DNA of 54,971 nucleotides from Candidatus Daviesbacteria bacterium (GTDB lineage Bacteria; Patescibacteriota; Microgenomatia; Daviesbacterales; UBA10151). The notes beneath the pieces were generated by a model. It was not told the DNA's origin. It was given only the letters and a program-made list of their open reading frames with translations, and did no database searches. The DNA lies in assembly GCA_028715175.1 (NCBI GenBank), contig JAQUSJ010000003.1, forward strand, positions 1 through 54,971, written 5' to 3'. Positions 127 through 45,489 of this stretch are shown here, piece after piece; position 1 is the stretch's first letter, and every line of letters begins with the position of its first letter. Both the position numbers and the translations under genes were made by a program.

Positions 127-165
127 GGTGCCAGTACAGATAATTTGACAAGTAGATCTTATTTA
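1..165 (+). mobile_element. Partial IS element end; inverted partner at about 54818-54971
   Basis: 12-127 is the exact reverse complement of 54856-54971 (116/116). Weaker similarity continues about 25-40 nt past the stop codon, including a shared TAATTTGACAA block at 141-151 and 54833-54843. Confidence 0.6.
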
Positions 166-174
166 TGCTATTCT
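145..174 (+). promoter_or_regulatory. Candidate sigma70-like promoter for the T-box/arg operon
   Basis: TTGACA at 145-150, an 18-nt spacer, then TATTCT at 169-174. This places a start near G181, where the T-box Stem I begins. The -35 hexamer lies in the block shared with the other IS copy. Confidence 0.3.
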
Positions 175-180
175 TTTACG

Positions 181-406
181 GCGTTGAAGAGGAAAAGTAA
201 GCAAGGTGACGTTTTATAGCAAGAAGGATAGCTGAAAGCCTTTAAATTTAATCTTGTCTGAAGAGAGCCTCCGAGCAAAGATCGAAGAAATCTGTCCAAC
301 AGAAAGTAGGTCTTCTTAATAAAGAGTATCTTATTAATTACTTAATAAGATAAATTAGGGTGGTACCACGGGTTAATCTCGTCCCTAGTACAAGGACGAG
401 TTTTTT
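181..406 (+). promoter_or_regulatory. T-box riboswitch leader, probable arginine (AGA) specifier, controlling the argG operon
   Basis: Stem I spans 181-277. It has K-turn halves GCGTTGA and CGAGCA, an AGTA element at 196-199, a distal loop AAGG-ATAGCTGAAAG-CCTT at 224-242, and a specifier loop GAAG-AGA-G at 260-267 directly 5' of helix CCTC (268-271), which pairs with GAGG (189-192). Stem III is TCTTATTA/TAATAAGA at 329-350. The conserved T-box sequence AAATTAGGGTGGTACCACGG is at 352-372, followed by the terminator at 378-406. Confidence 0.8.
378..406 (+). terminator. Intrinsic terminator of the T-box expression platform
   Basis: CTCGTCC (378-384) pairs with GGACGAG (394-400) around a 9-nt loop, followed by TTTTTT at 401-406. 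TAGGG of the T-box sequence can pair instead with CCCTA (383-387) to form an antiterminator. Confidence 0.75.
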
Positions 407-426: not shown

Positions 427-1650
427 ATGGGAAATAAAGATAATCATGTGAATAAAGTAGTATTGGCCTTTTCAGGAGGTCTAGATACCTCATATTGTGC
501 TCTTTATCTAAAAGAGCAAGGTTATGATGTAGTGACTGTTACCGTTGATACGGGTGGTTTTAGCAAAGTAGAGATAGATAAAATTGCTGCACAATCTAAA
601 TTATTAGGTGCGAAAAACCACTACCTTATTAATGGTAAAAGTCAGCTCTATAATCAGTTTATTTCATATATCATCAAAGGGAATATCTTGCGGGGTGGAG
701 TTTATCCTCTTTGTGCCGGTACCGAGAGATTGGTTATTGTCCAGAAATTGGTTGAAACTGCCAAAAAAGTAGGAGCTGAATACATTGCTCATGGATCAAC
801 TGGTGCAGGTAACGATCAAATCCGGTTCGATGTTGCCTTGCAAGTTTTGGCGCCTGATTTAAAAATTCTTACCCCGGTTAGAGATTCAGGTATCAAGCGC
901 GAGGAAGAATTTGAATTACTGAAAAAATATCATTTACTAGGTTCCTTTACATCAAGTGCTTATTCAATCAATCAGAGTCTTTTGGGAGTTACTGTTAGCG
1001 GAGAGGAAACTAAAGGTTCTTGGGATACATTTCCTGAGGAAGTTATTTTTAGTGTTACTCCACTAAACAAAACACCTCAATCCCTGGTAGAATTTGTTCT
1101 ATCCTTCAAAAAAGGATTGCCTGTTGCCATAGATAATAAGAAAATGAGTGGTATTGTCATCATGGATTATCTTGGAAAGATCGGCAGCCAACATGGTATA
1201 GGTACAGGCATTCATTTAGGCAATACAATTCTTGGTATCAAGGGTAGAGTTGCTTTTGCAGCGCCTGCTGCGATTATTCTTATTAAAGCGCATAAAGAAT
1301 TGGAAAAGTTGGTACAGACAAAATGGCAATCATTTTGGAAAGAAACGCTAAGTGATTTTTACGGCAATTTATTACATGAGGCTCTTTATTTTGATCCAGT
1401 TATGCGCGATTTAGAAGCGATGATTGATAGCAGTCAGCAAAATGTGACAGGTGATGTTAAAGTTCAACTTTTTAAAGGCAATATTATTATAAATGGCTGT
1501 CAGAGTCCTTATTCCTTGATGGATCCTAAGATCGCTACTTATGGGGAGGAGAATATAATGTGGGACAGCCGGGATATTGCTGGGTTCTCAAAGATATACG
1601 CAATACCGGGTATGTTGGCGACTAATGTTAAAAGAAAGAAGAAAATATGA
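427..1650 (+). CDS. argG: Argininosuccinate synthase
   Basis: N-terminal VVLAFSGGLDTS is the PP-loop ATP pyrophosphatase motif. Also present are AHGSTGAGNDQIRF and a 407-aa length typical of ArgG. Confidence 0.9.
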   Translation: MGNKDNHVNKVVLAFSGGLDTSYCALYLKEQGYDVVTVTVDTGGFSKVEIDKIAAQSKLLGAKNHYLINGKSQLYNQFISYIIKGNILRGGVYPLCAGTERLVIVQKLVETAKKVGAEYIAHGSTGAGNDQIRFDVALQVLAPDLKILTPVRDSGIKREEEFELLKKYHLLGSFTSSAYSINQSLLGVTVSGEETKGSWDTFPEEVIFSVTPLNKTPQSLVEFVLSFKKGLPVAIDNKKMSGIVIMDYLGKIGSQHGIGTGIHLGNTILGIKGRVAFAAPAAIILIKAHKELEKLVQTKWQSFWKETLSDFYGNLLHEALYFDPVMRDLEAMIDSSQQNVTGDVKVQLFKGNIIINGCQSPYSLMDPKIATYGEENIMWDSRDIAGFSKIYAIPGMLATNVKRKKKI

Positions 1651-2684
1651 AGAAAATTAAATTAGATAAAATTCCGTCCATTTTTAAGAATGTTGATTTG
1701 TCAGACGAGGTCTGGATCGACAATCATGTTACTGCCGAAGAAGGAATGATGGTAGTAATTCAGGCAGAAGAAAATTCTGGTAAAAAAGACGTCATGGAGT
1801 TTGTTGGTGGACGTCTGGGTGTAACTCTAAAAGGTGATATTTTTGCCGGAGTATTAGGTTACAGAAAGGCACTAGTGGAATTTGCTGGAGTGGTTCCCGG
1901 GAAAATTAAAGTCGGGGATCAGTTATATCTGCTTTGCGAAAGTGGACTTATTGGGGATGTTTCTGGTGTTTATGAAGCTTGGGGTAAACCGATGAAAGTG
2001 AAGATATTGGGAGCGCTGGTGGATGAAAAAGGATGTTCAAAGACTCTCAAAAGCTATGTATTACCAAAAATCAAACCTATTCAAAAGAACATTCCGATGA
2101 TTTGTTTTGTGGCTACCAGAATGGATTCCGGGAAAACCACCATGGCTTGTAAGATAGCAAATTATTTCAAACAGCATGGTAAAAAGATCATAGCTATAAA
2201 GTCTACCGGAGTCAGTTATCTGCAGGATCCGTATAAGTTATTGGATAACGGAGTTGAGCAGGTTTTGGATTTTACGGACATGGGTTTACCTTCAACCTGT
2301 AACGGTAATGTAAAAGAGGTTCTTGAATCGACTGTTAACCTTATTAATCATGCTAAATCAGTGGATCCGGATTTAATCCTTATGGAATTCGGCGAAGGTA
2401 TTCTTGGAGAATATCATGTGCTTGATATACTAAAATACAAACCTATTAGAGATCAATTTTCATATGTGGTTTTGGCAGCTAATGATTTAACAGGCATATT
2501 GGGAGCTAAAGAAATACTCAAGAAAAAATGCAAACTGGAGATCGACATGGTGACCGGTCCGATTGCCAACAGTCATTTAGGTGTTCAGTTAATCGAGAAA
2601 TATTTCCAACTGGATGCAGAAAGTAACCAGCATGAAATTCACAAAACTATAGCTTCAATTAATAAAAAACTTTTCTCTGGATAA
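1647..2684 (+). CDS. Uncharacterised two-domain protein with a Walker-A-like motif (possibly DUF1611/DgcN-like), embedded in the arg operon
   Basis: The ATG overlaps the argG stop (ATGA at 1647-1650). Blocks seen are VATRMDSGKTT, then IKSTG, LDFTDMG and LMEFGEG. The protein is 345 aa. Family placement is from memory only. Confidence 0.45.
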   Translation: MKKIKLDKIPSIFKNVDLSDEVWIDNHVTAEEGMMVVIQAEENSGKKDVMEFVGGRLGVTLKGDIFAGVLGYRKALVEFAGVVPGKIKVGDQLYLLCESGLIGDVSGVYEAWGKPMKVKILGALVDEKGCSKTLKSYVLPKIKPIQKNIPMICFVATRMDSGKTTMACKIANYFKQHGKKIIAIKSTGVSYLQDPYKLLDNGVEQVLDFTDMGLPSTCNGNVKEVLESTVNLINHAKSVDPDLILMEFGEGILGEYHVLDILKYKPIRDQFSYVVLAANDLTGILGAKEILKKKCKLEIDMVTGPIANSHLGVQLIEKYFQLDAESNQHEIHKTIASINKKLFSG

Positions 2685-2690
2685 ACCTTC

Positions 2691-3734
2691 ATGAAACATT
2701 TTTTAACAACCTCAGATTTTGGACAGCAAGAATTGATGAATATGATAAAAACTGCTTTAGTGATGAAGAAATCAGGATGGAAAAAATCACTTCAAGACAG
2801 GATTCTCAGCATGTTTTTTTTCAATCCATCGTTGCGAACCAGATTGTCGTTTATTACCGCCATGGATAAGTTGGGTGGTCTGGCCGTGGATTTATCTTCT
2901 GGTAGTGGCGGTTTTCCGTTTGAATTTAAGGAGAATGCAGTCATGGATAAAAACACTATTGAACATGTTAAAGAAGCAGTGCCTGTGATATCGCGCATGA
3001 GTGATGCTATTGCTGTTAGAGCAAGCGAGCTAGTGACTGCTTCTTCAAAAAGCGTTAAAGTTCTTTCATGGGATGAGGTCAAGAAAGATACTACTATACA
3101 GAGTTTTGCCAAATACGCTACGGTGCCTGTTGTGAATATGGAATCAAATGTTTATCATCCCTGTCAAGGTTTAGGTGATGCCATGACTATTATGGAAAAG
3201 TTAGGTAACCCTAAAGGTAAAAAGTATGTTCTAACATGGGTTTATCATCCCAAGGCTCTACCAATGGCTACGGCGAATTCTCAGATTCTCTCTGCTTGTG
3301 ATTTGGGAATGCAAGTTACCATAACTTATCCTGAAGGATGGGATCTTGACGAGGATATTATCAATACAGCCAAAGCAAGAGCCAGACAAACCGGTGGGTC
3401 TTTAACGCTGGCTAACTCTCAGCAAGAAGCATTTCAGGATGCCCATATTGTATGCGCCAAAAGCTGGGGATCTATCAGGCACTATGGTGCTTGGTCTAAA
3501 GAAGATAAGATAAAGAAAGGATTAAAACACTGGATAGTTGACAAACAAAAAATGGATCTGACTGATAATGCCTATTTTATGCATTGTCTTCCTGTCAGGA
3601 GAAATGTTGAAGTGACGGATGAGATTTTAGACAGCTTATCTTCGATCGTGATTGATGAGGCAGAAAATAGAATGTGGATTCAAATGGCGATACTGGATTA
3701 TTTAATAGGTAAAAAGGATAAAAACCATGGATAA
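2691..3734 (+). CDS. argF': N-acyl-L-ornithine (acetyl/succinyl) carbamoyltransferase-like transcarbamylase
   Basis: FFNPSLRTR replaces the usual STRTR, alongside HPCQ and MHCLPVRRNVEVTD. The N-terminus KHFLTTSDF and C-terminus VIDEAENRMWIQ match the AOTCase/SOTCase subfamily rather than classical OTCase. Confidence 0.75.
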   Translation: MKHFLTTSDFGQQELMNMIKTALVMKKSGWKKSLQDRILSMFFFNPSLRTRLSFITAMDKLGGLAVDLSSGSGGFPFEFKENAVMDKNTIEHVKEAVPVISRMSDAIAVRASELVTASSKSVKVLSWDEVKKDTTIQSFAKYATVPVVNMESNVYHPCQGLGDAMTIMEKLGNPKGKKYVLTWVYHPKALPMATANSQILSACDLGMQVTITYPEGWDLDEDIINTAKARARQTGGSLTLANSQQEAFQDAHIVCAKSWGSIRHYGAWSKEDKIKKGLKHWIVDKQKMDLTDNAYFMHCLPVRRNVEVTDEILDSLSSIVIDEAENRMWIQMAILDYLIGKKDKNHG

Positions 3735-5211
3735 ACCTAAACTTGAAGCATCATCATTTATAGTTTCTGGAGAACAAATGGAATTAGATATAGAAATGGC
3801 GCCTTTTGATATTTGGGGGACAATAGTTCATGTGTTGATGCTTGTTAAGCAGGGAATTATTGATAAAGCTGGAGCTAAAGCTTGTCTTAAGGCTCTAATT
3901 GAGATAGATAAAGAGATGTGGAATGGTCAATTTGCTATTGATCCAAACAAAGGCGCCCAGTTAACCCTGGAAGCAAAACTAGTAGAGAAAGCAGGAGAAG
4001 CTGCCTACAGTATCCATACTGGCCGGAGCCGAAACGATCAGGTGATGGTAGTGGAGCTTTTGTATCTCAGGGAACAAATGCTTAAACTTTCCGAAAACGT
4101 AATTTCTCTCGTAGAATCTTTGCTTAAACTTGCAATTACCCATAAACAAACGGTTATGCCAGGGTACACTCATATGCAGCCAGGGAAAATTACAACAGTC
4201 GGACAGTGGGTAGCAGCATACCTTAATGGTTTCTTAAGGACATTGGATACGATTAAGTACTATCTTGATCTTTATGATATGAATCCTTTAGGAGCTTGTG
4301 AATCTTATGGTACATCTTGGCCGCTTGATCGGGAATTTACTGCCGAATACCTTGGTTTTGCCAAAGTATGGGAAATTCCACAGGACGCTATTTCTTCCCG
4401 AGGTTTTGCCCAACTTGGTTATTTAACTGCCATTTCGGAAATTTGCCTTGTAGCGAGTAAACTAAATGAAGATTTAATTTTATTCAGTACTTTTGAATAT
4501 GGAATGATTGAACTTGGAGATGAAGTATCTCAAAGGATGCATTCCATCACCGGCTCGTCCGTGATGGCACAGAAGAAAAACCCCGATGTTTTGGAAATTA
4601 TACGTTCAACCACTCCTCAGATAATTGGTTTTTGGTCGATTGTGGCCAACATTTTGTCATCTTTACCCATGGGTTATAACCGGGATAGCAGGGAGAGTAA
4701 AAAATTTATTCATCTGGGTTTAACTAAAACCATTTCTGTTGTAGGCTCTTTGCAAAAAGTAATCTCTACCCTAAAGGTTAACGAAAAAAGAATGCTAGAG
4801 TTGGCCACCTCAAATTATTCATTAACTACAGACTTGGCAGATTTTATATCTCAGAAGACCAAAATAGGATATAGACTTATTTATCAAATCATCGGTCAGC
4901 TAGTTGATGAGGCTATTAAGCAAGGCAACCCCTTAAGTCAAATTTCTGCTGCGGAGATTATACAAAAAGCAGCGGAGTTAAATTTAAAGATTAAAATTTC
5001 CGACGAAGAGATTACTAAGGCTGTGGATCCCAAGTTGGTAATTATTAAGAGGAAAAACGTGGGTGGAAGTAATTCAGTCACAATGGATAAGCTATTGGAT
5101 GATGCGAGCAAAAATATTAAAAAACAATTATCTTGGATTCAACAAAAACAAACTACAATCAAGGATGCTCGCCAGAAGACAGATAAATTAGTTAAAGAAA
5201 TGATTTCCTAA
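3727..5211 (+). CDS. argH: Argininosuccinate lyase
   Basis: Fumarate-lyase signature GSSVMAQKKNPDVLE, plus HTGRSRNDQ and GYTHMQPG. The start overlaps the argF' stop by 8 nt. Confidence 0.9.
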   Translation: MDKPKLEASSFIVSGEQMELDIEMAPFDIWGTIVHVLMLVKQGIIDKAGAKACLKALIEIDKEMWNGQFAIDPNKGAQLTLEAKLVEKAGEAAYSIHTGRSRNDQVMVVELLYLREQMLKLSENVISLVESLLKLAITHKQTVMPGYTHMQPGKITTVGQWVAAYLNGFLRTLDTIKYYLDLYDMNPLGACESYGTSWPLDREFTAEYLGFAKVWEIPQDAISSRGFAQLGYLTAISEICLVASKLNEDLILFSTFEYGMIELGDEVSQRMHSITGSSVMAQKKNPDVLEIIRSTTPQIIGFWSIVANILSSLPMGYNRDSRESKKFIHLGLTKTISVVGSLQKVISTLKVNEKRMLELATSNYSLTTDLADFISQKTKIGYRLIYQIIGQLVDEAIKQGNPLSQISAAEIIQKAAELNLKIKISDEEITKAVDPKLVIIKRKNVGGSNSVTMDKLLDDASKNIKKQLSWIQQKQTTIKDARQKTDKLVKEMIS

Positions 5212-6176
5212 TGGCATTGACTGGGCAATTTTGCCCCAAAATCCGGTCTGTCAAAAAAGCCTAGGGCTGCGACTGCCCCGATTAAACCCCGTTCTTCGCC
5301 AATTGGGTAAAGTGTTACCCTGGATTCTTTGCACACTCTTTTCAGCTTTTGAAGATCCTCAAACAAATGGAACTTTAGATCTGTACAAAAATCTATTAGA
5401 TTTTCTGGTAAAGAAAACCCGTCAAAAGTAGCCATCCCTGTTTGAGGACTGACAGTATATTTTTTTAATAGCTTAATAAACTCATCGATGATTTGTTTTT
5501 TCTGGATGTCTCGATCATAAATAAAGCTGATCAAAGTGCTTAGACAGTTTTTGGTCTTATGAGGATTGTTGGGAAAGAGCTGTATGTTATTATGAGTGGC
5601 ATAATAGACATTGAATTTTTTTCCTATGTCAATGGATATGTTATGAGCTAATGCATAAGTGGCACCTTCTGACTCGTTATCCGTATCATCCACCCCGATC
5701 AGCAAAAGTTTTTTAGCAGGCAGTACGATTCTTCCTATACCAAGCTTGTTACCTCCTCCTTCTTGGATAACCTGTACTTTTTCTACTCCTTCGGCTATAC
5801 CTCTGGAAAAGGAAGCGCTAACTCCGCCGCCACCGAAACCTGCAAAAGTGATAGCAACTTTGTCTTTTGTGACTAAACATTCTTCTATGCCGATAGGAGC
5901 AAAAGACGGAACTAAATTAAGTTTGGCTTTACCCTGATTGAGGATGTAAATAGTCATATTTCCTTCCCGGTAGCTTTTTTCGACAATTGAACTGGTTAAT
6001 GGAAAATGTAATGCCCGCCAGCCTTCAATAAAAAAGCCATTTCTGGGGCCATAATCTTCAATGTACATAACTCTCTTAGGAGTTGGGTCAACTACGGCCA
6101 AAATTTTATTGTAAGCCATGACCCATTTTCTGTTTTTCAATTTTGATTTAAGTTCTTGTGGGGTATATGTGGTCAT
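5208..6176 (-). CDS. Fusion protein: unknown Gly-rich N-domain plus a TiaS TCKD (DUF1743)-like C-domain
   Basis: IGVDDTDNESEGATYALA, LFPNNPHKTKNC and GEERGLIGAVAALG are colinear with remembered TiaS blocks GIDDTDSxxGMCTTYLA, NPxIPxKTRGNG and GRGLIGALAAVG. The start was chosen at the ATG at 6176-6174, 1 nt after the upstream stop. The tool ORF extends to 6236. Confidence 0.5.
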   Translation of the reverse strand: MTTYTPQELKSKLKNRKWVMAYNKILAVVDPTPKRVMYIEDYGPRNGFFIEGWRALHFPLTSSIVEKSYREGNMTIYILNQGKAKLNLVPSFAPIGIEECLVTKDKVAITFAGFGGGGVSASFSRGIAEGVEKVQVIQEGGGNKLGIGRIVLPAKKLLLIGVDDTDNESEGATYALAHNISIDIGKKFNVYYATHNNIQLFPNNPHKTKNCLSTLISFIYDRDIQKKQIIDEFIKLLKKYTVSPQTGMATFDGFSLPENLIDFCTDLKFHLFEDLQKLKRVCKESRVTLYPIGEERGLIGAVAALGFFDRPDFGAKLPSQCH

Positions 6177-6177
6177 A

Positions 6178-7149
6178 CTAATTGTGTTTGCCTGGGAAGA
6201 TTTCTGCCAAGAGACAACGGGCACTGCCTCCTCCAATTGTTTCTATGGTGGGAATATTGACAGGAACAATATCTCCATGATTCAACAGTTGTCTCTTTTG
6301 GTTCTCAGTAAAGGCGTCATAGGCTGTAGTGGACATTATGATTCTATTTCTTCCCAAAATAGACTGCATATCCAATACATTTCCGCAAAAAGAGTATAAT
6401 TGGTTTAAGGTAATTGGGATTATCTCCACCCCTAATGTTTCTAGTTCGCCCTGAACACTATGACGTTCTTGAGTATTCCTTATCGCGTCGAGACATACAA
6501 CGGAAAACTCCGCACCAATACTCATAACTACATTGGTGTGATAAATTGATTCTCCGCCTCTACCATATGCATGAAATTTGATTGGCCGATAGCCTGTTTT
6601 TGCACAAAAATCATCCAAAACTTGATAGGAAGTTCTGGCTGACTCATGGGCAAAGACTACTTTTCTTCTTCGATCGAATACCAAACTGCCGGTACCCTCA
6701 AGGAAGCGCCCGGACTGTTCATGATATGTTAAATCCAGTACATGAGATGAATCGGTTGCTATCCAGGGAACCAAACGTCTCACTTGGTCTAATTGTCTTT
6801 CCGCCCTTCTATTAAGAGCAAGCATAGGATATAAAATGACATCTATACCATCTAATTCGCTGTGAAAGGAAATCCAGTTATTGGGAAAGACTGCATCAGG
6901 AGTATTTACACCTGTTCTGCTGGGACACACGACTACTTTAATTCCATTTCCGCGCAATAAATCTACCACTGTGTTAAATTCTGTCATGGCTTTATGGCAA
7001 ATTTCTCCGGAATCTGGAGATAGCTTACTTTGGAAAGTATTAGTACTGGCTGTCTGGTCATTGAAACCAAAGCTATCAGGGCTAACCATTAAGACGATAT
7101 CTGTTAATTGAGTAGTTCTAGTCGATAAAGGCGTTTCTGATATAGCCAT
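6178..7149 (-). CDS. CtlX/amidinotransferase-like guanidino-group-modifying enzyme (citrulline/arginine hydrolase family)
   Basis: The C-terminal GGGSARCLLAEIF carries the catalytic Cys typical of the arginine deiminase/DDAH/amidinotransferase superfamily. HTNVVMSIG and the LMVSP N-terminus resemble the arginine-deiminase-related (CtlX) family. Confidence 0.65.
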   Translation of the reverse strand: MAISETPLSTRTTQLTDIVLMVSPDSFGFNDQTASTNTFQSKLSPDSGEICHKAMTEFNTVVDLLRGNGIKVVVCPSRTGVNTPDAVFPNNWISFHSELDGIDVILYPMLALNRRAERQLDQVRRLVPWIATDSSHVLDLTYHEQSGRFLEGTGSLVFDRRRKVVFAHESARTSYQVLDDFCAKTGYRPIKFHAYGRGGESIYHTNVVMSIGAEFSVVCLDAIRNTQERHSVQGELETLGVEIIPITLNQLYSFCGNVLDMQSILGRNRIIMSTTAYDAFTENQKRQLLNHGDIVPVNIPTIETIGGGSARCLLAEIFPGKHN

Positions 7150-7217
7150 ATTATTGAGCGTAAAGGATATTACATCCGAAGTTTGTGATTGTCAATGTTT
7201 CGAGCTGGTTTAAAGTT

Positions 7218-7724
7218 TTAAGAAGCTGGAGTAGGGTGAGTGGGGAAAGGATAAAATGGACGTGGCAAAATGGTGATCCTTATTCCTGTAGCAGGATCCA
7301 AATGATCAAAGGCTGCTCCAAAACCTATTACAGTTATGGATTTTAAGATGTCTGCGTGGAGAGGGTTATTACTGTCAGTCATAGATTTAACAGCTGCTAG
7401 GAGAGTAGATGGATTCCTGTCTATAATCCAATATGATCCTTCACCATTTTGCGCTCTGCGTGAACTGAGATTTTCTAGTATCTGTCTTGCTCTTTCTTCT
7501 GGTGAACTGCATAGAATGATAGGTAAAGAATCTGGTACTCCAGCTGCAGTTAATAATGCACGTGTTCTTTTCACCATCTCTGTATCTGGTAGATTTTGTT
7601 CGCGATTAGGATAGATCCCTCCGCATAAGGAGTTAGCTCTTTTGACAAAATCAGATATTTCCTTAGGTCTTATGTCTGTGATGTCACCAACAATGATCAC
7701 TCTTTCAGTTCCAATAGAGCTCAT
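7218..7724 (-). CDS. Hypothetical protein, no recognisable motif
   Basis: A 168-aa ORF on the same strand as its arginine-related neighbours. The coding call rests on length and context only. Confidence 0.4.
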   Translation of the reverse strand: MSSIGTERVIIVGDITDIRPKEISDFVKRANSLCGGIYPNREQNLPDTEMVKRTRALLTAAGVPDSLPIILCSSPEERARQILENLSSRRAQNGEGSYWIIDRNPSTLLAAVKSMTDSNNPLHADILKSITVIGFGAAFDHLDPATGIRITILPRPFYPFPTHPTPAS

Positions 7725-7780
7725 ATAGAAAAGACTTTATACAATATCTGATAGTTATTTTCAATACCCTGAAATATTTC

Positions 7781-8887
7781 TTAATCTTTAGCCCAGGCAA
7801 AGTAAACCTGTTCGAAAATACCTGATGCAGTGCTAATTTGTTTAATATCTGCTGATTCATCTGTTGTGTGAGCCTGAGAGGTTTCTCCTGGGCCAAAAAT
7901 CACCCCGTCAATGCCTAAATTTGTAAAAAACCCCAAATCATTGGAAGCATCATTTATTGCTATTTTTATTCCTGGGACTACACTTTGGAATACTTTGACA
8001 ATTTTTGAATCTGGGTTGGTGTAGCCGGCCGGACCTGGGGGATGAAGTAGCGATAATTTAATACCCCGCTTTTGTGCCAGCTGTTTGATTCTGTCAAAGG
8101 CCTTTTCATGGTAGCCGGGAATAGTGCGTAAGTCAAAAGTAGCCCGACAATAGCCGGCTGTTTTATTGGGAGAATCTGATTTAGCTTCAATTGAGGTTGA
8201 GGTAATAGCGGGAGGAACAAACTCAGAGTCTTTAAACTTTTTCTGCCAGCTCAAATTTTCTGTTTGCAAATCGTTTATAAAATTATTCATTTCGGCAATC
8301 GCATGAGACTTTATAGCTGAGGGTCTGGAGGAGTGAGTAGAAGTGCCTGTCTTTTCTGCTTTAATAAAAAAGTGTCCCCGGTGTCCATATTTGACAGTGT
8401 TAAGATCGGTTGGTTCTGCAAAAACAGCAGCCAGCTCACTGTATTGTTTGAGATAACCCTTTTTTTCAAACCACTCTGTAAATTGTTTTGTTCCTGCTCC
8501 GTCTGTTTCTTCTTTCACCACAAAGGTAAACCAAACATCTGTGGATAGTTGCTTTTTGATTAAGGATTTGGCAGTTTCCATCATGGCTAATACTCCACCT
8601 TTCGCATCAGAAGCACCTCTGCCAAAAATTCTGCCATTGACAATTTCACCTTCCCATGGATTGTGTTTCCATCTTATAATATCGCCTATATCCACAATAT
8701 CCACATGACTATTAAAAATAAATGCTCGTTTTTGATCTTCGCCATCCAGTTTGACTATTAAATTATCTCCTTGGAAAAAAGGTTTTATGCCAGCATCTTC
8801 AAGCTGAGTCTTAATATATTCTAAGATCAGCTTTTCTTTGCTTGAATATGATTGGAAATTTATTAATTTTCTTAAGCTATTTATCAT
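7781..8887 (-). CDS. M20 family deacylase (ArgE/DapE-like; candidate acyl-citrulline/acyl-ornithine deacylase)
   Basis: NSHVDIV, GRGASDAKGG and VVKEETDG are the M20 metal and catalytic motifs. The protein is 368 aa and starts 9 nt downstream of argS. Confidence 0.75.
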   Translation of the reverse strand: MINSLRKLINFQSYSSKEKLILEYIKTQLEDAGIKPFFQGDNLIVKLDGEDQKRAFIFNSHVDIVDIGDIIRWKHNPWEGEIVNGRIFGRGASDAKGGVLAMMETAKSLIKKQLSTDVWFTFVVKEETDGAGTKQFTEWFEKKGYLKQYSELAAVFAEPTDLNTVKYGHRGHFFIKAEKTGTSTHSSRPSAIKSHAIAEMNNFINDLQTENLSWQKKFKDSEFVPPAITSTSIEAKSDSPNKTAGYCRATFDLRTIPGYHEKAFDRIKQLAQKRGIKLSLLHPPGPAGYTNPDSKIVKVFQSVVPGIKIAINDASNDLGFFTNLGIDGVIFGPGETSQAHTTDESADIKQISTASGIFEQVYFAWAKD

Positions 8888-8896
8888 CTCTTTATT

Positions 8897-10783
8897 TTAC
8901 ATCCTTTCAGGCGCTTCAATGCAAAGCAAGTCTAGGCCGTTTTTCACAACTTGAGCTGAGGCTTGCGTCAAACGCAGAAGACTGTTCCTTCGTACTGAAT
9001 CCGGTTCATTAACGATACGTACTCTGTCGTACAAGGTAGTAAATAAATCAGCAGCACGGAAGATGTATTCTGCAAGTATATCAGGTCTGCTGGTTTGCGC
9101 GGCTCTAGTAATTGCTTCAGGGAATTTACTAAGATGTTTAATGAGGGCGTTTCCTGGCTGATTAGTCACTTCGATTGGTAAATCGTACCGTAATTCCATT
9201 TGTTCCTTCTGAGCTCGTTGCAGTAGGGCTCTCATTCTGGCATATGCATATTGGATATAAGGAGCGCTGCGTCCTGTGAAGGATAAAGCGCTGTCCCAGT
9301 CAAATTTAATCGATCTTTCTCTACCTTGTCCCAGATCAAAGAATACAACCGCCCCAACTCCTACTTGTCTGGCGATAGTTTCTTTTTCCTCTCTAGATAG
9401 ATCCCTGCTTAAATCATCAATTTTTTGTCTGGCTCTGTCAACAGCTTCAGTTAGCAAATCTTCTAAAAAAATCACTCTTCCGGCTCTGGTGGACATCTTT
9501 CCTTCTGGCAACCTGATCATGCCGAAATGAACATGTTCTGTTTGAGGACCTGTATTCCCCGTCATCATATCGAAAGTGGCAAAAATTTGTCGAAAATATC
9601 TTTGTTGATCTTCACCAACTACATAAATAATTCTGTGGGGATTAAACCAAGCGCAGCGCGCTACCAGTGTGGCTAAATCTCTGGTGGAGTATAAGCTTGT
9701 GCCGTCTGTTTTTTGAACTACTAATTTATCAAGGTTTTTCATAGATAAATCAACCACAATTGCGCCAGTTTCATCTATTGAGGCAATGTTTCTTTCTCTC
9801 ATATATTCTAAAACACGTGGAATCATAGGTATATAGAACGATTCTCCCAGCATATATTCATACCGGGATCCGAGTACATCATATACTCTTTGGAATTCAG
9901 CTAAGCTTTTTTGGGTAGCCCACTTTAAAAGTTCAATTGCTCTTTCGTCTCCAGATTCCAATCTTTGAAACCATCTTCTACCTTCTCGTTCCAAAGCTGT
10001 TTCCACATCCTCGTTTGCATCTAAACCCGATCTTTCTCGTTCGGCGATTTTTTCTTTCTCTACTTCCTCATGAATACGAACATAGAGTTTATATAGACCT
10101 TTGACCGGATCAGTGCCCTCACTTAATTCTTCATAATCATCTGCCCATAGTTCATGAGCTCTTGCCAACATACCGAATTGAGTTCCCCAATCGCCTAAAT
10201 GATTATCACGAATAACTTTATAACCGATGGCTCTGTTTATTCTGGCAAGCGATTCGCCGATTATCGTTGATCTTAAATGGCCGATACTCATGTATTTGGC
10301 TACGTTAGGGGATGAGCAGTCAATTACCACTGTTTCACCTTCTCCGATGTTTTGTTCACCATAGTGGTCTTGATATGTTTCGACTTCAGAGATGGCTTGA
10401 TTTCCGAATATATGCATATTAAGCAGGAAATTAAGATATCCTTTTTGGGCGATAGCTTCTTGAATAGTTGGCGGATTGGGATCTGAATTAAAACCCTCAG
10501 CCAACTCTTGAGCAATTTGCGCAGGACTTTTTCTTAATCTTCCTGCCATTTCATGACAAATTACGGTTAAATCAGCTGCTACATTAGGAGATGGTTCGGT
10601 TGCCCGCATGCCAGCCTCGGCCAAAACAGGATTAAGCCCGACAAGATGAGATATTAAATCTCTTTGTGTAGCAGTCCAAATATATTGGTTACTTCGAGGC
10701 ATATTTAAAAGATCCGGTTTAGTAATTGGGATATTACTCTCGGACAAAACAGGGACAGGAATACCTAAATATTGTTCGGTCAT
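8897..10783 (-). CDS. argS: Arginyl-tRNA synthetase
   Basis: The class I HIGH region reads SSPNVAKYMSIGHLRSTIIG, with an anticodon-binding C-terminus. The start was moved to the ATG at 10783-10781, which forms an ATGA overlap with the arcA stop. Confidence 0.9.
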   Translation of the reverse strand: MTEQYLGIPVPVLSESNIPITKPDLLNMPRSNQYIWTATQRDLISHLVGLNPVLAEAGMRATEPSPNVAADLTVICHEMAGRLRKSPAQIAQELAEGFNSDPNPPTIQEAIAQKGYLNFLLNMHIFGNQAISEVETYQDHYGEQNIGEGETVVIDCSSPNVAKYMSIGHLRSTIIGESLARINRAIGYKVIRDNHLGDWGTQFGMLARAHELWADDYEELSEGTDPVKGLYKLYVRIHEEVEKEKIAERERSGLDANEDVETALEREGRRWFQRLESGDERAIELLKWATQKSLAEFQRVYDVLGSRYEYMLGESFYIPMIPRVLEYMRERNIASIDETGAIVVDLSMKNLDKLVVQKTDGTSLYSTRDLATLVARCAWFNPHRIIYVVGEDQQRYFRQIFATFDMMTGNTGPQTEHVHFGMIRLPEGKMSTRAGRVIFLEDLLTEAVDRARQKIDDLSRDLSREEKETIARQVGVGAVVFFDLGQGRERSIKFDWDSALSFTGRSAPYIQYAYARMRALLQRAQKEQMELRYDLPIEVTNQPGNALIKHLSKFPEAITRAAQTSRPDILAEYIFRAADLFTTLYDRVRIVNEPDSVRRNSLLRLTQASAQVVKNGLDLLCIEAPERM

Positions 10784-12006
10784 ATGTTTGATCTTAAAAG
10801 CTGTCCGGTCATACAATGTGCGGCACCATAACCTTTGGTGCTCTCAAATAAATCGGTATGTACCACTTGTTTACCCAGCCCTCTCAGTTGATTATTTGTA
10901 TCAGTATTATAGCGTAGCGGCACAAATATGACACATCTCCCGCTGCTATCTTCTCCTTTGAGTAGAAAGTTACAGCCAAATCCTTTTTGTTCTTCTTGTG
11001 GAATAATCACGATATTATCTTCTGTTTGCTCCAGAAAGTCAATGAAGCTACCGAAACCATCATTTATAACTAAATTATCCCCAAAACTATTTAAGAATCT
11101 GATTCTTCTTCTTCGCGCTTCTTCTATACAAACAGCTATTTCTCTTTTGCCTACTGGATTTGAGAAAGTATCAAGATGCATGGAGTCTTGTTGTTCGCTA
11201 AAAGATCGGCCGAACGGATCTTCGTCTTCTACTACGGCGAATTTCAGACAGCATTGTTCCAGTTGTGGTTTGAGAGCCTGATATATTCCAACTGCTGCGC
11301 CTAATGTGGTACGTGTGCCTACACCGACAAACACAGTACCATTATGAATATAGGCGTCACCACCTTCAAAGGTTTCGCCAGAAGGGATGATAATTGTTGT
11401 GTGTGGTGCCAAATGTTGCTGGTAGACGAGTTCGTACAAATCAACTTCATGTCGTCTAATAGCCTTGGCCATTCGCGAAACTACCCTTGTGTCGCATAAG
11501 ACATTCATATGATCTCTGCCGTAGAGACTATTACCCAGAGGAAACTGTGGGTCAACGCTCAAAGTTTGATTTAAGTTCAAAGCTCCTTCCTCTCCATACC
11601 GAACAATGTCTTGTTCTACAAGCATTGTTATTAAATCAGCAGAATCTTCTACATGAATATCATATTGATTTTGAATAGCTTGAGCTCTACCAACCATCGC
11701 AGCGATTACTGCGTCTTTTCTTAATGGTCTTGGTTTTAAGGTTTCGGCCAAGAGATCCCTTACCATAAGAACTTTTACTCCGTGATCTTGTAAGATAGCA
11801 GCATAATTTATTCCTTCCTGTCTGGCAGTAATTACATCAAATGACTGATAAAATAGAGAGATTGCTTTAGGATAACACTGGGCTAAAACAGCCTCCGCGC
11901 CAATGGCTCCCCAAGTAGAGACAGCTCTCAAGGGTTCAGCTTCATCGAAAATACCTATTTGAATAGAATTTGGGGGCAGATCCGACTCAAGCGAATGAGC
12001 GATCAT
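10780..12006 (-). CDS. arcA: Arginine deiminase family protein
   Basis: 408 aa, with GGDAYIHNGTVFVGVGTRTT, HLDTF and C-terminal GAAHCMTGQLLR carrying the catalytic Cys. Confidence 0.7.
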   Translation of the reverse strand: MIAHSLESDLPPNSIQIGIFDEAEPLRAVSTWGAIGAEAVLAQCYPKAISLFYQSFDVITARQEGINYAAILQDHGVKVLMVRDLLAETLKPRPLRKDAVIAAMVGRAQAIQNQYDIHVEDSADLITMLVEQDIVRYGEEGALNLNQTLSVDPQFPLGNSLYGRDHMNVLCDTRVVSRMAKAIRRHEVDLYELVYQQHLAPHTTIIIPSGETFEGGDAYIHNGTVFVGVGTRTTLGAAVGIYQALKPQLEQCCLKFAVVEDEDPFGRSFSEQQDSMHLDTFSNPVGKREIAVCIEEARRRRIRFLNSFGDNLVINDGFGSFIDFLEQTEDNIVIIPQEEQKGFGCNFLLKGEDSSGRCVIFVPLRYNTDTNNQLRGLGKQVVHTDLFESTKGYGAAHCMTGQLLRSNI

Positions 12007-12106
12007 CTTTAAAAGAGTAGTTATACTAGATTTGGATAGGTGTTGTCAAACCAAGGTATATAAGATAAATATCCTGGATACGGAGTTTTATGGTAGACTA
12101 GAAAGC

Positions 12107-39989: not shown

Positions 39990-40076
39990 TATTGACAGGA
40001 GGTAATTTTGTAGTTAAACTAGCAAAAGATTCGTATGATTAGGAAATATTTTTTAATTAGTTTAATGATTTAATGC

Positions 40077-40100
40077 ATCCGCCAGAGGGCGGATTTTTTT
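40077..40100 (+). terminator. Intrinsic terminator
   Basis: ATCCGCC and GGCGGAT form the stem with loop AGAG, followed by a T7 run. Confidence 0.8.
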
Positions 40101-40165
40101 AAAAAAGATTCTGGACAAGTCCTTCGATCCCGAGGTACTCAGGACCGAGGGGCCAGAATGACATT

Positions 40166-41089
40166 ATGAAATTTAAAGGCAGGGATATTATAGATATAAA
40201 CGATTTTTCCAGAGAAGAGTTGTTATATATTTTAAAAATTGCCAAAAAGTTCGATCCCAGCTTTGTTAAAAGCGATAGGTCCAACTACACTATTGCCCAA
40301 GGCAAAATCGCTGCGCTGCTTTTTTTTGAACCCTCCACCAGAACTCAACAATCTTTCTCCTCAGCAGCCCAAAAAATAGGTATGGGTCTGATTGGTTTTA
40401 ATGACCCAGAGTTAACCTCTATTCATAAAGGTGAATCTTTTGCAGACACAATCAGAGTCATGATGGCTTATGCAGATGTGATGATTATCAGACACCCGGA
40501 GCCTGGATCTGCCAGAAAAGCTGCCGATGTAGCTGATATTCCGGTGATTAATGCCGGAGACGGTCCCAATAGCCACCCCACTCAAACAATATTGGATTTG
40601 TACACTATTTCAAAAGTTTTTAATCGTTTAGATAATCTCAAAATAGCTTTTGTAGGTGATCCACTACATTATCGAACCTTTCATGGGCAGTTTTCAGCTT
40701 TGGCAAAATTTTCCGGTAATAAATTTTATGGTGTTTCACCAAAAGGTTTGGAGATGCCCAAAGAGTTTAGAAATAAGGACTATCAGGATGTGGTGATTGA
40801 TATGAAAAATCTGGATAAAACGCTAGCTGAACTTAAACCAGATATTGTTTCTGCTGGTAGGATTCCCAAAGAATATATTAAAGGTGATGCTAAAAAATAT
40901 ACTTACAGTATTAATAAAGACACGCTGGCAGCTTTACCCAAGCATTGCGTTATTATGCATCCGCTGCCTAGAGTAGATGAAATTGATCCAGAGATAGATT
41001 CCAGTCCGCAAGCAATCTACTTTGCTCAAGCACGGAATGGTTTATATGTTAGAGAAGGATTACTAACATTAGTTCTGGGAAGATTATAA
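40166..41089 (+). CDS. pyrB: Aspartate carbamoyltransferase catalytic subunit
   Basis: FFEPSTRTQQSF, HPTQ and HPLPR. Confidence 0.9.
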   Translation: MKFKGRDIIDINDFSREELLYILKIAKKFDPSFVKSDRSNYTIAQGKIAALLFFEPSTRTQQSFSSAAQKIGMGLIGFNDPELTSIHKGESFADTIRVMMAYADVMIIRHPEPGSARKAADVADIPVINAGDGPNSHPTQTILDLYTISKVFNRLDNLKIAFVGDPLHYRTFHGQFSALAKFSGNKFYGVSPKGLEMPKEFRNKDYQDVVIDMKNLDKTLAELKPDIVSAGRIPKEYIKGDAKKYTYSINKDTLAALPKHCVIMHPLPRVDEIDPEIDSSPQAIYFAQARNGLYVREGLLTLVLGRL

Positions 41090-41111
41090 AAATATAAAAA
41101 GGTTTTAAATT

Positions 41112-42218
41112 ATGATGGGGAGACTGGTTCTGTCCGATGGGACAGTTTTTTTAGGGGAAAGTTTCGGGAAAGAGGATACCACCTCAGGGGAGGTGGTTTT
41201 TAATACCGGAATGGCAGGCTACCCCGAATCTCTGACAGACCCATCTTATTTCGGGCAAATTCTGGTTTTAACCTACCCCTTGCAAGGCAATTATGGGGTT
41301 CCGGAGAGTAAGTTTTGGGAATCAGGGAAAATTCAGGTTAAGGGACTAATTGTCCAAAATTATATTGATCACCCATCACATTTTGAAAGCCGGAAAACTT
41401 TGGGAGATTGGCTTAAGGAACAAGGAATACCTGCTATACAAGGAATTGATACCAGAGAGCTGACCAGGAAGTTAAGGGAACATGGAGTGATGTTGGGGAA
41501 GATAGTCGTCAGCTATCAGCCATCAGTCGTCAGAGAAGACATAATTGGGATTTATGATCCTAACAAAGAAAATATTTTGCCTTATGTAAGTACTAAGAAA
41601 GTTGAAGTCTATGGTGAAGGCAGAAAAAATATAGTTCTAATTGATTGTGGAGCAAAGGAAAATATTATCAGGAGTTTAGTAAAGAGAGGCGTAAGAGTGA
41701 CAAGAGTGCCTTGGGACTTTAATCCGCTGACATCAAAAATAGATTCTTCGCTAGTCGCTCAGAATGACAGGGGGGGTGGGCTGGATTTTGACGGAGTGCT
41801 GGTTTCAAATGGGCCGGGTGATCCGAAACAGGCAAAGGATACTATAAAAATTGTCAAACAGCTTCTAGAAGCAAATATTCCGACATTTGGTATTTGTTTA
41901 GGCAGCCAGATTTTAGCGTTAGCTGCAGGCGGAGAAACCTACAAATTAAAATTTGGCCACAGAGGTCAAAATCAGCCAGTCATGGACCAATTTAATAAAA
42001 AGGCTGTGATAACCAGTCAGAATCACGGATTTGCAGTTGATATGAAATCAATGGATAAAGATTGGAAGGAATGGTTTGTTAACTTAAACGACGGGACAAA
42101 TGAAGGAATCAGGCATAAAAGTAAACCGTTTTTGGCAGTGCAGTTTCACCCGGAGGCAAACCCGGGTCCGATTGAGGGAGGATATTTGTTTGATGAGTTT
42201 CTAAAATATGTCAAATAA
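41112..42218 (+). CDS. carA: Carbamoyl-phosphate synthase small (glutaminase) subunit
   Basis: The N-terminus LSDGTVFLGESFG, the GATase triad region FGICLGSQ, and QFHPE. Confidence 0.9.
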   Translation: MMGRLVLSDGTVFLGESFGKEDTTSGEVVFNTGMAGYPESLTDPSYFGQILVLTYPLQGNYGVPESKFWESGKIQVKGLIVQNYIDHPSHFESRKTLGDWLKEQGIPAIQGIDTRELTRKLREHGVMLGKIVVSYQPSVVREDIIGIYDPNKENILPYVSTKKVEVYGEGRKNIVLIDCGAKENIIRSLVKRGVRVTRVPWDFNPLTSKIDSSLVAQNDRGGGLDFDGVLVSNGPGDPKQAKDTIKIVKQLLEANIPTFGICLGSQILALAAGGETYKLKFGHRGQNQPVMDQFNKKAVITSQNHGFAVDMKSMDKDWKEWFVNLNDGTNEGIRHKSKPFLAVQFHPEANPGPIEGGYLFDEFLKYVK

Positions 42219-45200: not shown

Positions 45201-45489
45201 TTTAAGCAAGCATGCTATTAAAAATATCCGGGTCTATAAAATTTCGGAAAGAAAAACGCCTTCTGTTTTAGACCTTCTTAAAGACGGTAAGATCGATCTG
45301 GTGATAAATATATCTGAATCAAGATCAAACCAGGGCGAAACTGCAGGATATCTTATCAGAAGAAACTGTGTGGATTTGGGGATTCCCTTGATAACCAATG
45401 TGCAGGCAGCAGAACTCTTGGTTTCTGCTCTTTCTTCTAAAAAAATGGAAGATTTGGAAATTAAAAGTTGGGATGAATATGTTGGGTAA
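42208..45489 (+). CDS. carB: Carbamoyl-phosphate synthase large subunit
   Basis: 1093 aa with duplicated ATP-grasp halves, an N-terminus [24 protein letters not shown], and an MGS-like C-terminus. Confidence 0.95.
   Translation: [1093 protein letters not shown]

Follow-up and report, generated by a model that had tools for sequence, protein, structure and literature searches.

An accessory arginine island of a Daviesbacteria genome with an arginine T-box and a possible N-acyl route from ornithine to arginine

The window analysed here is a stretch of 54,971 nucleotides that makes up the entire contig C1 (JAQUSJ010000003.1) of the Candidatus Daviesbacteria bacterium assembly GCA_028715175.1, and the subject of this study is the island of arginine genes near its start. 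The island is built of two convergent units. The plus-strand unit carries argG, an unnamed gene that we call P-loop X, argF' and argH behind a T-box leader, while the minus-strand unit encodes a distant member of the arginine deiminase (ADI) family, a second arginyl-tRNA synthetase (ArgS2), an M20 deacylase, an orphan, a CtlX-family hydrolase and a protein of the methanogenesis-marker-11 family. Our favoured reading, which we hold with somewhat more belief than doubt, is that this is an accessory arginine island that interconverts ornithine, citrulline and arginine, with ornithine entering via N-acyl intermediates, in a genome without the glutamate-to-ornithine pathway. The genome has 963,401 bp in 3 contigs, with an estimated completeness of 100% and a contamination of 0.26%. 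Patescibacteria are thought to be host-dependent for amino acids, and the most interesting element of the island in this respect is the subfamily of P-loop proteins found in short operons of this kind, as its gene neighbourhoods suggest an entry of ornithine through acylated intermediates.

The glutamate-to-ornithine genes and carbamate kinase, which the initial annotation had reported as absent from the window, are missing from the genome as a whole. The only gene of the AA_kinase family in the genome is an aspartate kinase, so there is neither an ArgB nor a carbamate kinase, and neither argB over the cut-off nor any match to the arcC model was found in the genome. ArgJ and the class-III aminotransferase family Aminotran_3 each gave 0 matches in the genome, the only semialdehyde dehydrogenase in the genome reaches 36 bits for argC, and no ordinary or catabolic ornithine carbamoyltransferase (OTC) was found, since the only other carbamoyltransferase in the genome is pyrB. 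A tblastn search of the genome with the ArgB, ArgC, ArgD and ornithine cyclodeaminase (OCD) of the related genome G015 returned nothing, and no arginase-family protein and no ArgR domain were found in the genome. The models for the missing arginine genes score in 10-14 of the 14 genomes of our control panel. Canonical argBCDJ or arcBC genes elsewhere in the genome, which according to the initial annotation would turn the island into a part of an ordinary split de novo pathway, were thus found neither by family models nor by tblastn, and the island is therefore not a part of such a pathway.

The leader upstream of argG is a T-box, as the initial annotation proposed: it scores 104.3 bits against a gathering score of 93 and covers the full Rfam model (1-219). 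In the Rfam register the specifier loop reads GAA-G-AGA-G, i.e., the codon AGA followed by a purine, and among 14 aligned leaders upstream of argG the specifier position holds AGA in 5, CGA in 6, CGC in 2 and an unclear triplet in 1. Because three synonymous arginine codons are used across the related leaders, there is strong evidence in these alignments that the specifier is arginine and that the leader reads tRNA-Arg, which was also the earlier view. The motif pairing with the tRNA end is UGGU in the window leader and UGGC in relatives, and all five tRNA-Arg genes have a G73 discriminator that is able to pair with the U or C of UGGY; a gene for tRNA-Arg(UCU) was found in the genome, and AGA accounts for 93 of the 172 arginine codons in the island genes. 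The terminator is a 7-bp hairpin at 378-400 (-10.1 kcal/mol, z -3.55) followed by U6, and it shares its 5' arm with the antiterminator, so that the two are mutually exclusive. Rfam also gave T-boxes upstream of argG in the relatives G015, at 96 bits, and G017, at 81 bits; the support in G012 is weak (33 bits), and at E<=0.01 a T-box is present in 5 of the 7 metagenome loci scanned with the Rfam model. Near the housekeeping argS (region L006) there was no T-box at the gathering score.

Scans of the window proteins with Pfam and NCBIfam profiles at curated cut-offs, and of RNA with Rfam covariance models, gave the features collected in Table 1. All ten open reading frames lie where the initial annotation had placed them, and its stop-to-stop meeting of the two units at 5208-5211 was reproduced, the argH stop (5209-5211) overlapping the minus-strand stop (5208-5210). 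The convergent ends abut in every version of the island, with the same 4-nt overlap in the window, G015 and the metagenome loci L021 and L022, and with the ends separated by 4 nt in L034, 5 nt in G017 and 22 nt in G012. Transcription of either unit could therefore run on into the other; the terminator scan at the convergent junction gave no more sites than shuffled sequence. For the marker-11 gene the most likely start is ATG 6176, one base past the CtlX stop. ArgS2 most likely begins at ATG 10783, where its start and the ADI-like stop overlap as ATGA, and translational coupling of the ADI-like gene to ArgS2 is proposed through this overlap. The promoter of the minus unit is not in the list of the consensus scan, which demands a T at the last position of the -10 hexamer. 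The contig starts 145 bp before the island promoter, and its first ~126 bases (1-126) look like the 3' part of a gene truncated at the contig edge. On the other side of the island, the listed trpS reading frame has TTG 12032 as its start, which leaves only 25 bp to the divergent ADI-like gene; a start at ATG 12108 (MKRILTGDRPTG...) is more likely, leaving ~100 bp for two divergent promoters.

Table 1. Features of the arginine island and of the carbamoyl phosphate genes in the window (scores are given against the model cut-off).
Feature	Position	Strand	Basis and remarks
Promoter-like TTGACA-18-TATTCT, TG extension	145..174	+	consensus scan; ends one base before the T-box; sites found do not exceed shuffled expectation
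T-box leader	175..389	+	Rfam RF00230
argG, argininosuccinate synthase	427..1650	+	TIGR00032 319.9 vs 268.2; NF001770 337.2 vs 334
P-loop X	1647..2684	+	no Pfam/NCBIfam family met; AlphaFold (AF2) model and synteny
argF', N-acylornithine carbamoyltransferase	2691..3734	+	NF003384 397.8 vs 288
argH, argininosuccinate lyase	3727..5211	+	TIGR00838 331.9 vs 279.5
Methanogenesis-marker-11 family protein, last gene of minus unit	5208..6176 (listed ORF 5208-6236)	-	TIGR03280 278.5 vs 255.8
CtlX-family hydrolase, putative citrullinase	6178..7149	-	NF046062 339.8 vs 334
Orphan, 168 aa	7218..7724	-	no Pfam/NCBIfam family
M20 ArgE/DapE-type deacylase	7781..8887	-	Pfam M20 94.2 vs 24.6
ArgS2, second arginyl-tRNA synthetase	8897..10783 (listed ORF 8897-10816)	-	TIGR00456 444.6 vs 261.65
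ADI-family guanidino-group hydrolase, first gene of minus unit	10780..12006	-	Pfam ADI 88.1 vs 22.8
Promoter-like TTGACA-18-TATAAC	12013..12049	-	read from sequence; ~13 nt upstream of ATG 12006
pyrB-carA-carB	40166..45489	+	carbamoyl phosphate source

ArgF' was earlier taken for an acyl-type carbamoyltransferase, and at the family level this is borne out by the NF003384 equivalog, together with 283 bits against the chains of the Xanthomonas campestris N-acetylornithine carbamoyltransferase (AOTCase). Position 92 of the Xanthomonas enzyme is the switch between acetyl and succinyl substrates (Shi et al. 2007, as summarised in 10.1101/2024.10.14.618325). Opposite the Xanthomonas Glu92 the window protein has Ile90, where the best chain in the Protein Data Bank (PDB) has Val. 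The same position holds I in 28, A in 3, K in 1 and M in 1 of the 33 ArgF' proteins from window-like operons, and Q in 3, A in 3, T in 1 and V in 1 of the 8 from full operons; it is S in G015 and I in G017, and the acetyl-specifying Glu was seen in 0 of 43 related proteins, just as in the window. As the switch residue is not Glu, the substrate of ArgF' is likely to be of the succinyl type or to carry some other non-acetyl acyl group. Carbamoyl phosphate would come from the carAB genes, which the initial annotation located at 41-45 kb; carA is confirmed by homology, since pyrB (40166-41089) shares 85% and carA (41112-42218) 80% identity with G012 proteins passing their NCBIfam models, while carB (42208-45489, 1093 aa) was identified by size and position only.

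The M20 gene of the minus unit, which is the only M20 gene of the window genome, meets the Pfam family and stays below the cut-off of the ArgE/DapE subfamily TIGR01910 (183 vs 217.6). Its nearest PDB sequences are succinyl-diaminopimelate (DAP) desuccinylase (75 bits) and acetylornithine deacetylase (72 bits), and from such similarities the protein is presumed to be the N-acylcitrulline deacylase of the route. An M20 gene is present in the islands with argF' and missing from the G012 island with an ordinary OTC. In the fetched region of G012 there was also no P-loop X and no marker-11 gene, and this version, with an ordinary OTC and without M20 and P-loop X, therefore tells us that M20 and P-loop X go with the acyl-type ArgF'.

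P-loop X met no Pfam or NCBIfam family, the best being a sub-threshold CbiA (23.8 vs 25.4), and its comparison with the PDB by sequence or profile gave just P-loop-level matches to FtsY/SRP54. Its 159 homologues come from Daviesbacteria, Gottesmanbacteria and other Patescibacteria, and each is either unnamed or called "hypothetical". The Walker A motif is TRMDSGKTT. The AF2 model, made from an alignment of 29 sequences (pLDDT 93.9), has an all-beta N-domain and a SIMIBI-class P-loop C-domain, and its nearest solved folds are the ligase domain of CTP synthase (Z 16.6), dethiobiotin synthetases (Z 16.1-16.5), DUF1611 proteins (Z 14.9-15.7) and the D-glutamate N-acetyltransferase DgcN (7xrj, Z 14.2); these top folds are tied within ~2.4 Z, and Foldseek agrees on the class. 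The modelled fold thus stands among the ATP-dependent amidoligases and the DUF1611/DgcN acetyltransferases. P-loop X is the candidate N-acyl(succinyl)transferase or ligase of the pathway, and the fold may be compatible with an ATP-dependent ligase that uses the free acid.

A scan of metagenome contigs yielded 80 loci holding relatives of P-loop X, whose neighbours were typed by tblastn with the island proteins, and these loci fall into two kinds. In 49 of the 80, the operon is window-like, i.e., the short form argG-Ploop-argF'-argH at 38-75% identity, with argG immediately upstream of the P-loop gene in 24 of 32 loci with room for it, argF' immediately downstream in 29 of 35 with room, and argB or argC in 0 of 49; a second type of M20 (17 loci) and argS (11 loci) often follow downstream. 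The other 31 resemble the paralog of G015, with argC immediately downstream in 16 of 19 with room, and belong to operons of the order argG-Ploop-argC-argD-argF'-argB-M20-argH on contigs with up to 73% G+C. The two subfamilies, window-like versus full-operon, are only ~31% identical. A maximum-likelihood tree of 70 P-loop proteins, which is the result of a quick search with the careful search incomplete and with long branches flagged, places an SH-aLRT 100 branch between the two sets, with L089 as the sole exception. Of the 39 rows on one side, argF' is the next gene in 30 and argC in 0; of the 31 rows on the other, argC is the next gene in 15 and argF' in 1. A subclade of the window-like type is found away from arg operons, yet it too is paired with an M20 gene. 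At L063 (270-8398), the partner of a P-loop X homologue is an M20 peptidase of 470 aa, and the pair has as neighbours an IS110 transposase and a 1084-aa protein with a Tc-toxin TcA C-terminal domain.

The GapMind 2026 preprint (10.1101/2024.10.14.618325) proposes the hypothetical protein ACG33_RS14135 (UniProt A0A127FCT3) of Steroidobacter as an alternative N-succinylglutamate synthase. The grounds given there are that the protein is virtually always in arg operons and never together with ArgA, that Foldseek matches it weakly to 7XRJ and that the neighbouring ArgF' is without Glu92 (10.1101/2024.10.14.618325). By comparison of these features, the window-type P-loop X appears to belong to the same family. 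The passages of the preprint on this protein do not cover a subfamily retained without ArgB, ArgC and ArgD (10.1101/2024.10.14.618325), and a partnership with these three enzymes on N-acylglutamate does not apply to the window type, as they were found neither in the window genome nor, for argB and argC, in any of the 49 window-like loci. Since the subfamily is retained where ArgB, ArgC and ArgD are missing, its acceptor or its role may differ there, and we regard a different acceptor, ornithine, as likely.

On the minus side, the label arcA given to the first gene of the unit had to be dropped, since the 408-aa protein fails both arcA equivalogs by a wide distance (TIGR01078 72.7 vs 489.1, NF002381 76.3 vs 414) and is better described as a distant hydrolase of the ADI family. 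Its best PDB matches are arginine deiminases (E ~1e-5), and the motifs YGRD, EGGD, GTRT, HLD and HCMT are invariant in 3 orthologues; the guanidino-binding Asp motifs and the catalytic Cys and His of ADI are thereby retained, the Cys in the C-terminal HCMT. As the Asp-containing motifs and the C-terminal HCMT are kept, the ADI-like protein is likely to hydrolyse a guanidino group, most simply that of arginine. Searched alone against the genome contigs it gave no related locus, and a 3-sequence alignment gave just the G012 and G015 loci.

The positions of YGRD and HLD in the ADI-like protein are occupied by FPNN and HTN in the CtlX protein of the island, where both motifs can be read in the translation and which passes NF046062. 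According to Price et al. 2022 (PMC9007349), FTRD and HLD are named motifs of ADI, loss of the Asp marks CtlX, and the FPNN and HTN substitutions are the hallmark of the CtlX family. By analogy, the window protein is a putative enzyme for the conversion of citrulline to ornithine plus carbamate. The argS of the minus unit is an arginyl-tRNA synthetase by its score, as annotated; however, it is an extra paralog, because the housekeeping copy, which scores 392.6 bits with TIGR00456 and is the commoner type in the genus, is on contig 2. Orthologues of ArgS2 among the 40 relatives were found only in G012 (65%), G015 (51%) and G017 (a fragment), so that it occurs only with the island, and the pairing of the ADI-like gene with argS persists in the metagenome loci L022 and L024, where the ADI-like protein is 34-42% identical to that of the window.

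The orphan has 61 representatives at E<=1e-3 among 1.84 billion proteins in a full HMMER search, where a word-based search gave 2. None of 16 scanned homologues (0/16) was over any Pfam cut-off and there was no NCBIfam match; the AF2 model (pLDDT 79.4) is a small Rossmann-like alpha/beta protein whose matches are generic Rossmann-like folds (Foldseek TM up to 0.49, VIA Z up to 7.6). Orthologues are encoded in the islands of G017, G012, L021 and L022. The last gene of the unit had been called TiaS-like, a label that we replaced, since the TiaS equivalog reaches 26.5 against a cut-off of 600 and the protein passes the marker-11 model TIGR03280. The similarity is visible at the level of Pfam TiaS_TCKD (30.7) and of PDB 3u02 (E 3.6e-4); as a TiaS the protein was rejected, both for the failed equivalog and since the genome has a tRNA-Ile(UAU) and only two tRNA-CAU. 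Among the control genomes, TIGR03280 scores only in the two methanogens, and in the phylum the family occurs in 2 of 401 genomes, namely the window genome and G051. The G051 copy (L102 = G051:C32, 8697-9653) is the sole gene on its strand, with pgk, tpi, fba, gap and Nuo51-like genes around it, and the idea of marker-11 as a fixed partner of CtlX was rejected as a rule, given these 2 of 401 genomes and a G051 copy among glycolysis genes. A literature search under "methanogenesis marker protein 11" found no paper.

The initial annotation asked for conservation of the synteny in related genomes, and the architecture does recur, although patchily: 3 other genomes have it, and so do at least 5 metagenome loci in which both units are present. 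We searched 40 relatives, 18 of them from the genus of the window genome, and the island is present in 4 of 41 genomes when the window genome is counted. Close homologues of ArgF' were found only in G015 (81%) and G017 (77%), that of P-loop X only in G017 (75%), G015 having a 31% paralog, and CtlX in G003, G012, G015 and G017. G017 has the gene order of the window, with an orphan 42% identical and the other proteins 65-78% identical. In G015, the minus side runs from the ADI-like gene and ArgS2 through a S-adenosylmethionine (SAM) methyltransferase, a YbaK-like deacylase, M20, the P-loop paralog, argC, argD and argB to a second M20, then come ornithine cyclodeaminase on the other strand and CtlX, and all of this is convergent with T-box-argG-argF'-argH; L021 has the same insertion of the methyltransferase and the YbaK-like gene between ArgS2 and M20. 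As the G015 island holds argC, argD and argB, the window version is a reduced form of a de novo cluster. In G012, the ADI-like gene, ArgS2, the orphan and CtlX are convergent with argH-argG and an ordinary OTC, and G012 (completeness estimate 100%) has no match to argB, argC or ArgJ. The loop from ornithine over citrulline to arginine and back, without the glutamate-to-ornithine genes, is thus encoded in at least 2 complete genomes, in G012 without the acyl steps. The earlier view of salvage or interconversion rather than de novo synthesis is consequently upheld for the window genome and for G012, with the qualification that the window island is derived from a de novo cluster by reduction.

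Versions and insertion sites differ between genomes, and for this reason the island is an accessory, rearranging cassette. It lies between pyrC and pyrB in G012, G015, G003 and the metagenome locus L021; in the window genome this site is empty, with the two genes 177 bp apart, and the island is 28 kb away at the start of the contig. What G003 has at the pyrC site (L017 = G003:C33, 5463-7560) is a lone CtlX followed by an IS481-family transposase, which looks like a remnant of the island, and a marker-11 fragment of 77 residues is present in L024. The island directly adjoins rRNA genes in two metagenome loci (L024 1-3492 with 23S and 5S; L022 1-453 with 16S). Short G+C-rich hairpins of the form CCGCC-N4-GGCGG with a T-run behind them were seen at 39990-40165 of the window and at 6398-6609 and 14804-14972 of L015; they border the pyrC|pyrB junction as well as the two edges of the G012 island and may be terminators.

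To put these elements together, we propose a mechanism in which the identities of the genes are observed at the family level and the acyl group and its donor, the direction of flux and the substrates of P-loop X, ArgF', M20, the ADI-like protein and CtlX are what we infer. The plus operon would be gated by a transcription-attenuating T-box that senses uncharged tRNA-Arg, and arginine would be made from scavenged precursors. P-loop X would N-acylate ornithine, probably by succinylation, ArgF' would carbamoylate the acyl-ornithine with carbamoyl phosphate from carAB, M20 would deacylate the product to citrulline, and ArgG and ArgH would take citrulline to arginine, with external citrulline entering directly at ArgG. 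The minus operon would be expressed from a strong leaderless promoter, the ADI-like enzyme turning arginine into citrulline and CtlX turning citrulline into ornithine. When arginine is plentiful, ammonia could be drawn from it without gain of ATP, and when it is scarce, the charging of tRNA-Arg would be restored. The initial annotation supposed that an anabolic and a catabolic unit are oppositely regulated, and this does not agree with the layout: the only M20 gene, the presumed deacylase, is in the minus unit, so synthesis by this route depends on expression of that unit. In addition, the near-consensus promoter of the minus unit lies ~13 nt before the ATG, hence there is no room for a leader RNA, and no ArgR was found.

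Several points weigh against this proposal. The activities of P-loop X, ArgF', M20, the ADI-like protein and CtlX are predicted from sequence, and the citrullinase role of CtlX itself comes, in the words of its own authors, from genetics only (Price et al. 2022, PMC9007349). For the P-loop family, what has been proposed in the literature is succinylation of glutamate and not acylation of ornithine, and in a search with a P-loop homologue of the full-operon type none of the best 120 of 2072 matches is labelled Steroidobacter, all being unnamed or "hypothetical". A CoA-ligase domain of the succinyl-CoA synthetase type was not found in the genome. G015 has two M20 paralogs, and the orthologue of the window M20 (63% identical) is not the copy after argB (38% identical), so that the window M20 may not be the acyl-citrulline deacylase. 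Both branches running together are an ATP-wasting cycle, no regulator of the minus unit was found, and apart from re-synthesis the searches of the genome gave no sink for ornithine (neither an OCD nor an arginase-family protein, and one decarboxylase, which lies beside lysC and asd). At the Rfam gathering score, a T-box was seen in 0 of the 11 metagenome loci scanned. Finally, the island is rare, with close relatives of ArgF' and P-loop X in 2 of 40 genomes and CtlX in 4 of 40.

A wider reading joins these lines and is more tentative; we treat it as a possibility well short of even chances. In it, the window P-loop subfamily would be an ornithine N-alpha-acyl (probably succinyl) transferase or an ATP-dependent ligase that opens an undescribed route from ornithine over acyl-ornithine, acyl-citrulline and citrulline to arginine, common in Patescibacteria without argB, argC and argD. 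The Daviesbacteria islands would then be wired to tRNA-Arg on both sides, with a T-box gating synthesis and a hydrolytic branch with its own arginyl-tRNA synthetase and, in fuller versions, a YbaK-like deacylase; the marker-11/TiaS-like enzyme might activate the ureido carbonyl with ATP.

Among the alternatives, the island could be the decaying remnant of a full cluster like that of G015, in which only ArgG and ArgH still matter and P-loop X, ArgF' and M20 are leftovers without substrate. The G015 island with the genes Ploop-argC-argD-argB-M20b inside it, the lone CtlX beside an IS481 transposase in G003, the marker-11 fragment of L024 and the shift of the window island away from the pyrC|pyrB site would all fit such a history. 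However, all reading frames of the window island are intact, and the short operon of the 49 metagenome loci, diverged to the identities given above, free of argB and argC and on its own side of the SH-aLRT 100 branch, is recurrent and therefore argues for long-term retention under selection rather than for recent decay, so that we regard decay as unlikely. A different account is a complete cycle from ornithine over citrulline and arginine back to ornithine, with both units co-expressed, which moves the nitrogen of aspartate and carbamoyl phosphate to ammonia or buffers the pH and is not a salvage route at all. Every step of the closed loop is encoded, an ordinary OTC serves it in G012, the M20 in the minus unit requires co-expression of both units and an ornithine sink was not found; such a cycle would resemble the cyanobacterial ornithine-ammonia cycle. 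We nevertheless give it little credence, since ATP would be spent at CarAB and ArgG without return in a genome where no carbamate kinase was found, and since gating of the plus unit by the charging of tRNA-Arg is a logic of supply and not of nitrogen handling.

The minus unit might also not degrade free arginine, with the ADI-like protein and CtlX acting on N-acylated or other guanidino or ureido compounds, or with the unit centred on quality control of tRNA-Arg or on tRNA-dependent chemistry. The distance of the ADI-like protein from characterised ADIs (72.7 bits vs 489), the overlap of its stop with the start of ArgS2, the pairing of these two genes kept in L022 and L024 at low identity, and the methyltransferase and YbaK-like deacylase between ArgS2 and M20 in G015 and L021 can be cited for this. 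On the other hand, the ADI motifs for the alpha-carboxylate and the guanidino group are conserved, the window has neither the methyltransferase nor the YbaK-like gene, and CtlX passes its equivalog threshold with the published motifs (PMC9007349); we consider this account doubtful as well. Still less credible, in our judgement, is ordinary de novo synthesis with the missing steps carried out by unrecognised or very divergent enzymes or encoded in assembly gaps. The assembly is indeed in 3 contigs and the window begins at a contig end just upstream of the island, and P-loop relatives elsewhere have been proposed as ArgA (10.1101/2024.10.14.618325); however, the completeness and contamination estimates speak against gaps, and neither models that score in 10-14 of the 14 control genomes nor tblastn with the ArgB, ArgC and ArgD of a congener found anything.

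If the favoured reading of an interconverting island holds, it offers a concrete model for amino-acid handling in Patescibacteria, that is, a salvage from ornithine and citrulline to arginine gated by tRNA charging, with a return route that yields no ATP. It also means that an enzyme family with only a comparative-genomics proposal (alternative ArgA) has a distinct subfamily in operons lacking ArgB, ArgC and ArgD. The congeners with the full version, the ordinary-OTC version and the remnant are natural experiments, to which the second arginyl-tRNA synthetase adds.

Some observations were made along the way. The loci L016 (G001:C67, 2040-5927) and L018 (G028:C23) hold clusters of the LysX-argC-argB-argD type; the "argC/argB" matches of G001 and G028 were rejected as arginine synthesis, being LysX-type clusters, with a homocitrate synthase homologue in G028, and the gene content suggests that some relatives have the LysW-type aminoadipate lysine pathway. 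The public titles of L019 and L020 (= G012:C4 and G015:C6), "uncultured Gammaproteobacteria bacterium", look mislabelled; genes there are 64-85% identical to the window backbone, and close homologues of the proteins are named Daviesbacteria or Patescibacteria. ARAGORN lists 45 tRNA genes in the genome, including tRNA-Ile(UAU) and just two tRNA-CAU, so that reading of AUA presumably needs neither lysidine nor agmatidine. With the bacterial model for UMP kinase (pyrH), the aspartate kinase is the only match, and a weak one, although pyrB, pyrC and carAB are present.

Compared with known systems, the island shares with the N-acyl-ornithine route of Xanthomonas and Bacteroidetes the ArgF' family, an M20 of the ArgE/DapE type, ArgG and ArgH, and its non-Glu switch residue is as in the succinyl-type enzymes. 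It differs in that no argB, argC, argD or known argA/argJ was found in the genome, so that the pathway would start at ornithine, acyl-ornithine or citrulline, and in that the M20 gene is in the opposite, convergent operon. With the ADI (arcABC) pathway it has in common a first enzyme of the ADI family with conserved catalytic motifs; in contrast, no catabolic OTC and no carbamate kinase were found, CtlX would hydrolyse the citrulline and, as there is no carbamate kinase, the hydrolytic branch would yield no ATP. The CtlX of Price et al. 2022 (PMC9007349) agrees with the window protein in equivalog score and motifs, and its published neighbourhoods hold ocd or ornithine succinyltransferase (PMC9007349), as does that of G015, where CtlX is beside the ornithine cyclodeaminase gene. 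The window CtlX, unlike these, is in a genome of the candidate phyla radiation (CPR), convergent with an arginine-synthesis operon, with a marker-11 gene next to it and no ocd found. P-loop X and its G015 paralog share with the ACG33_RS14135 proposal, to which they are matched by description only, the arg-operon setting, the ArgF' neighbour without Glu92 and the likeness to 7XRJ, whereas the window subfamily is set apart by its short operons without argB, argC and argD. Lastly, the leader has the Rfam architecture, specifier codon, UGGN motif and terminator/antiterminator of the T-box riboswitches of amino-acid supply genes; what distinguishes it is that it is specific to arginine, is found in Patescibacteria and gates a salvage operon rather than the gene of an arginyl-tRNA synthetase.

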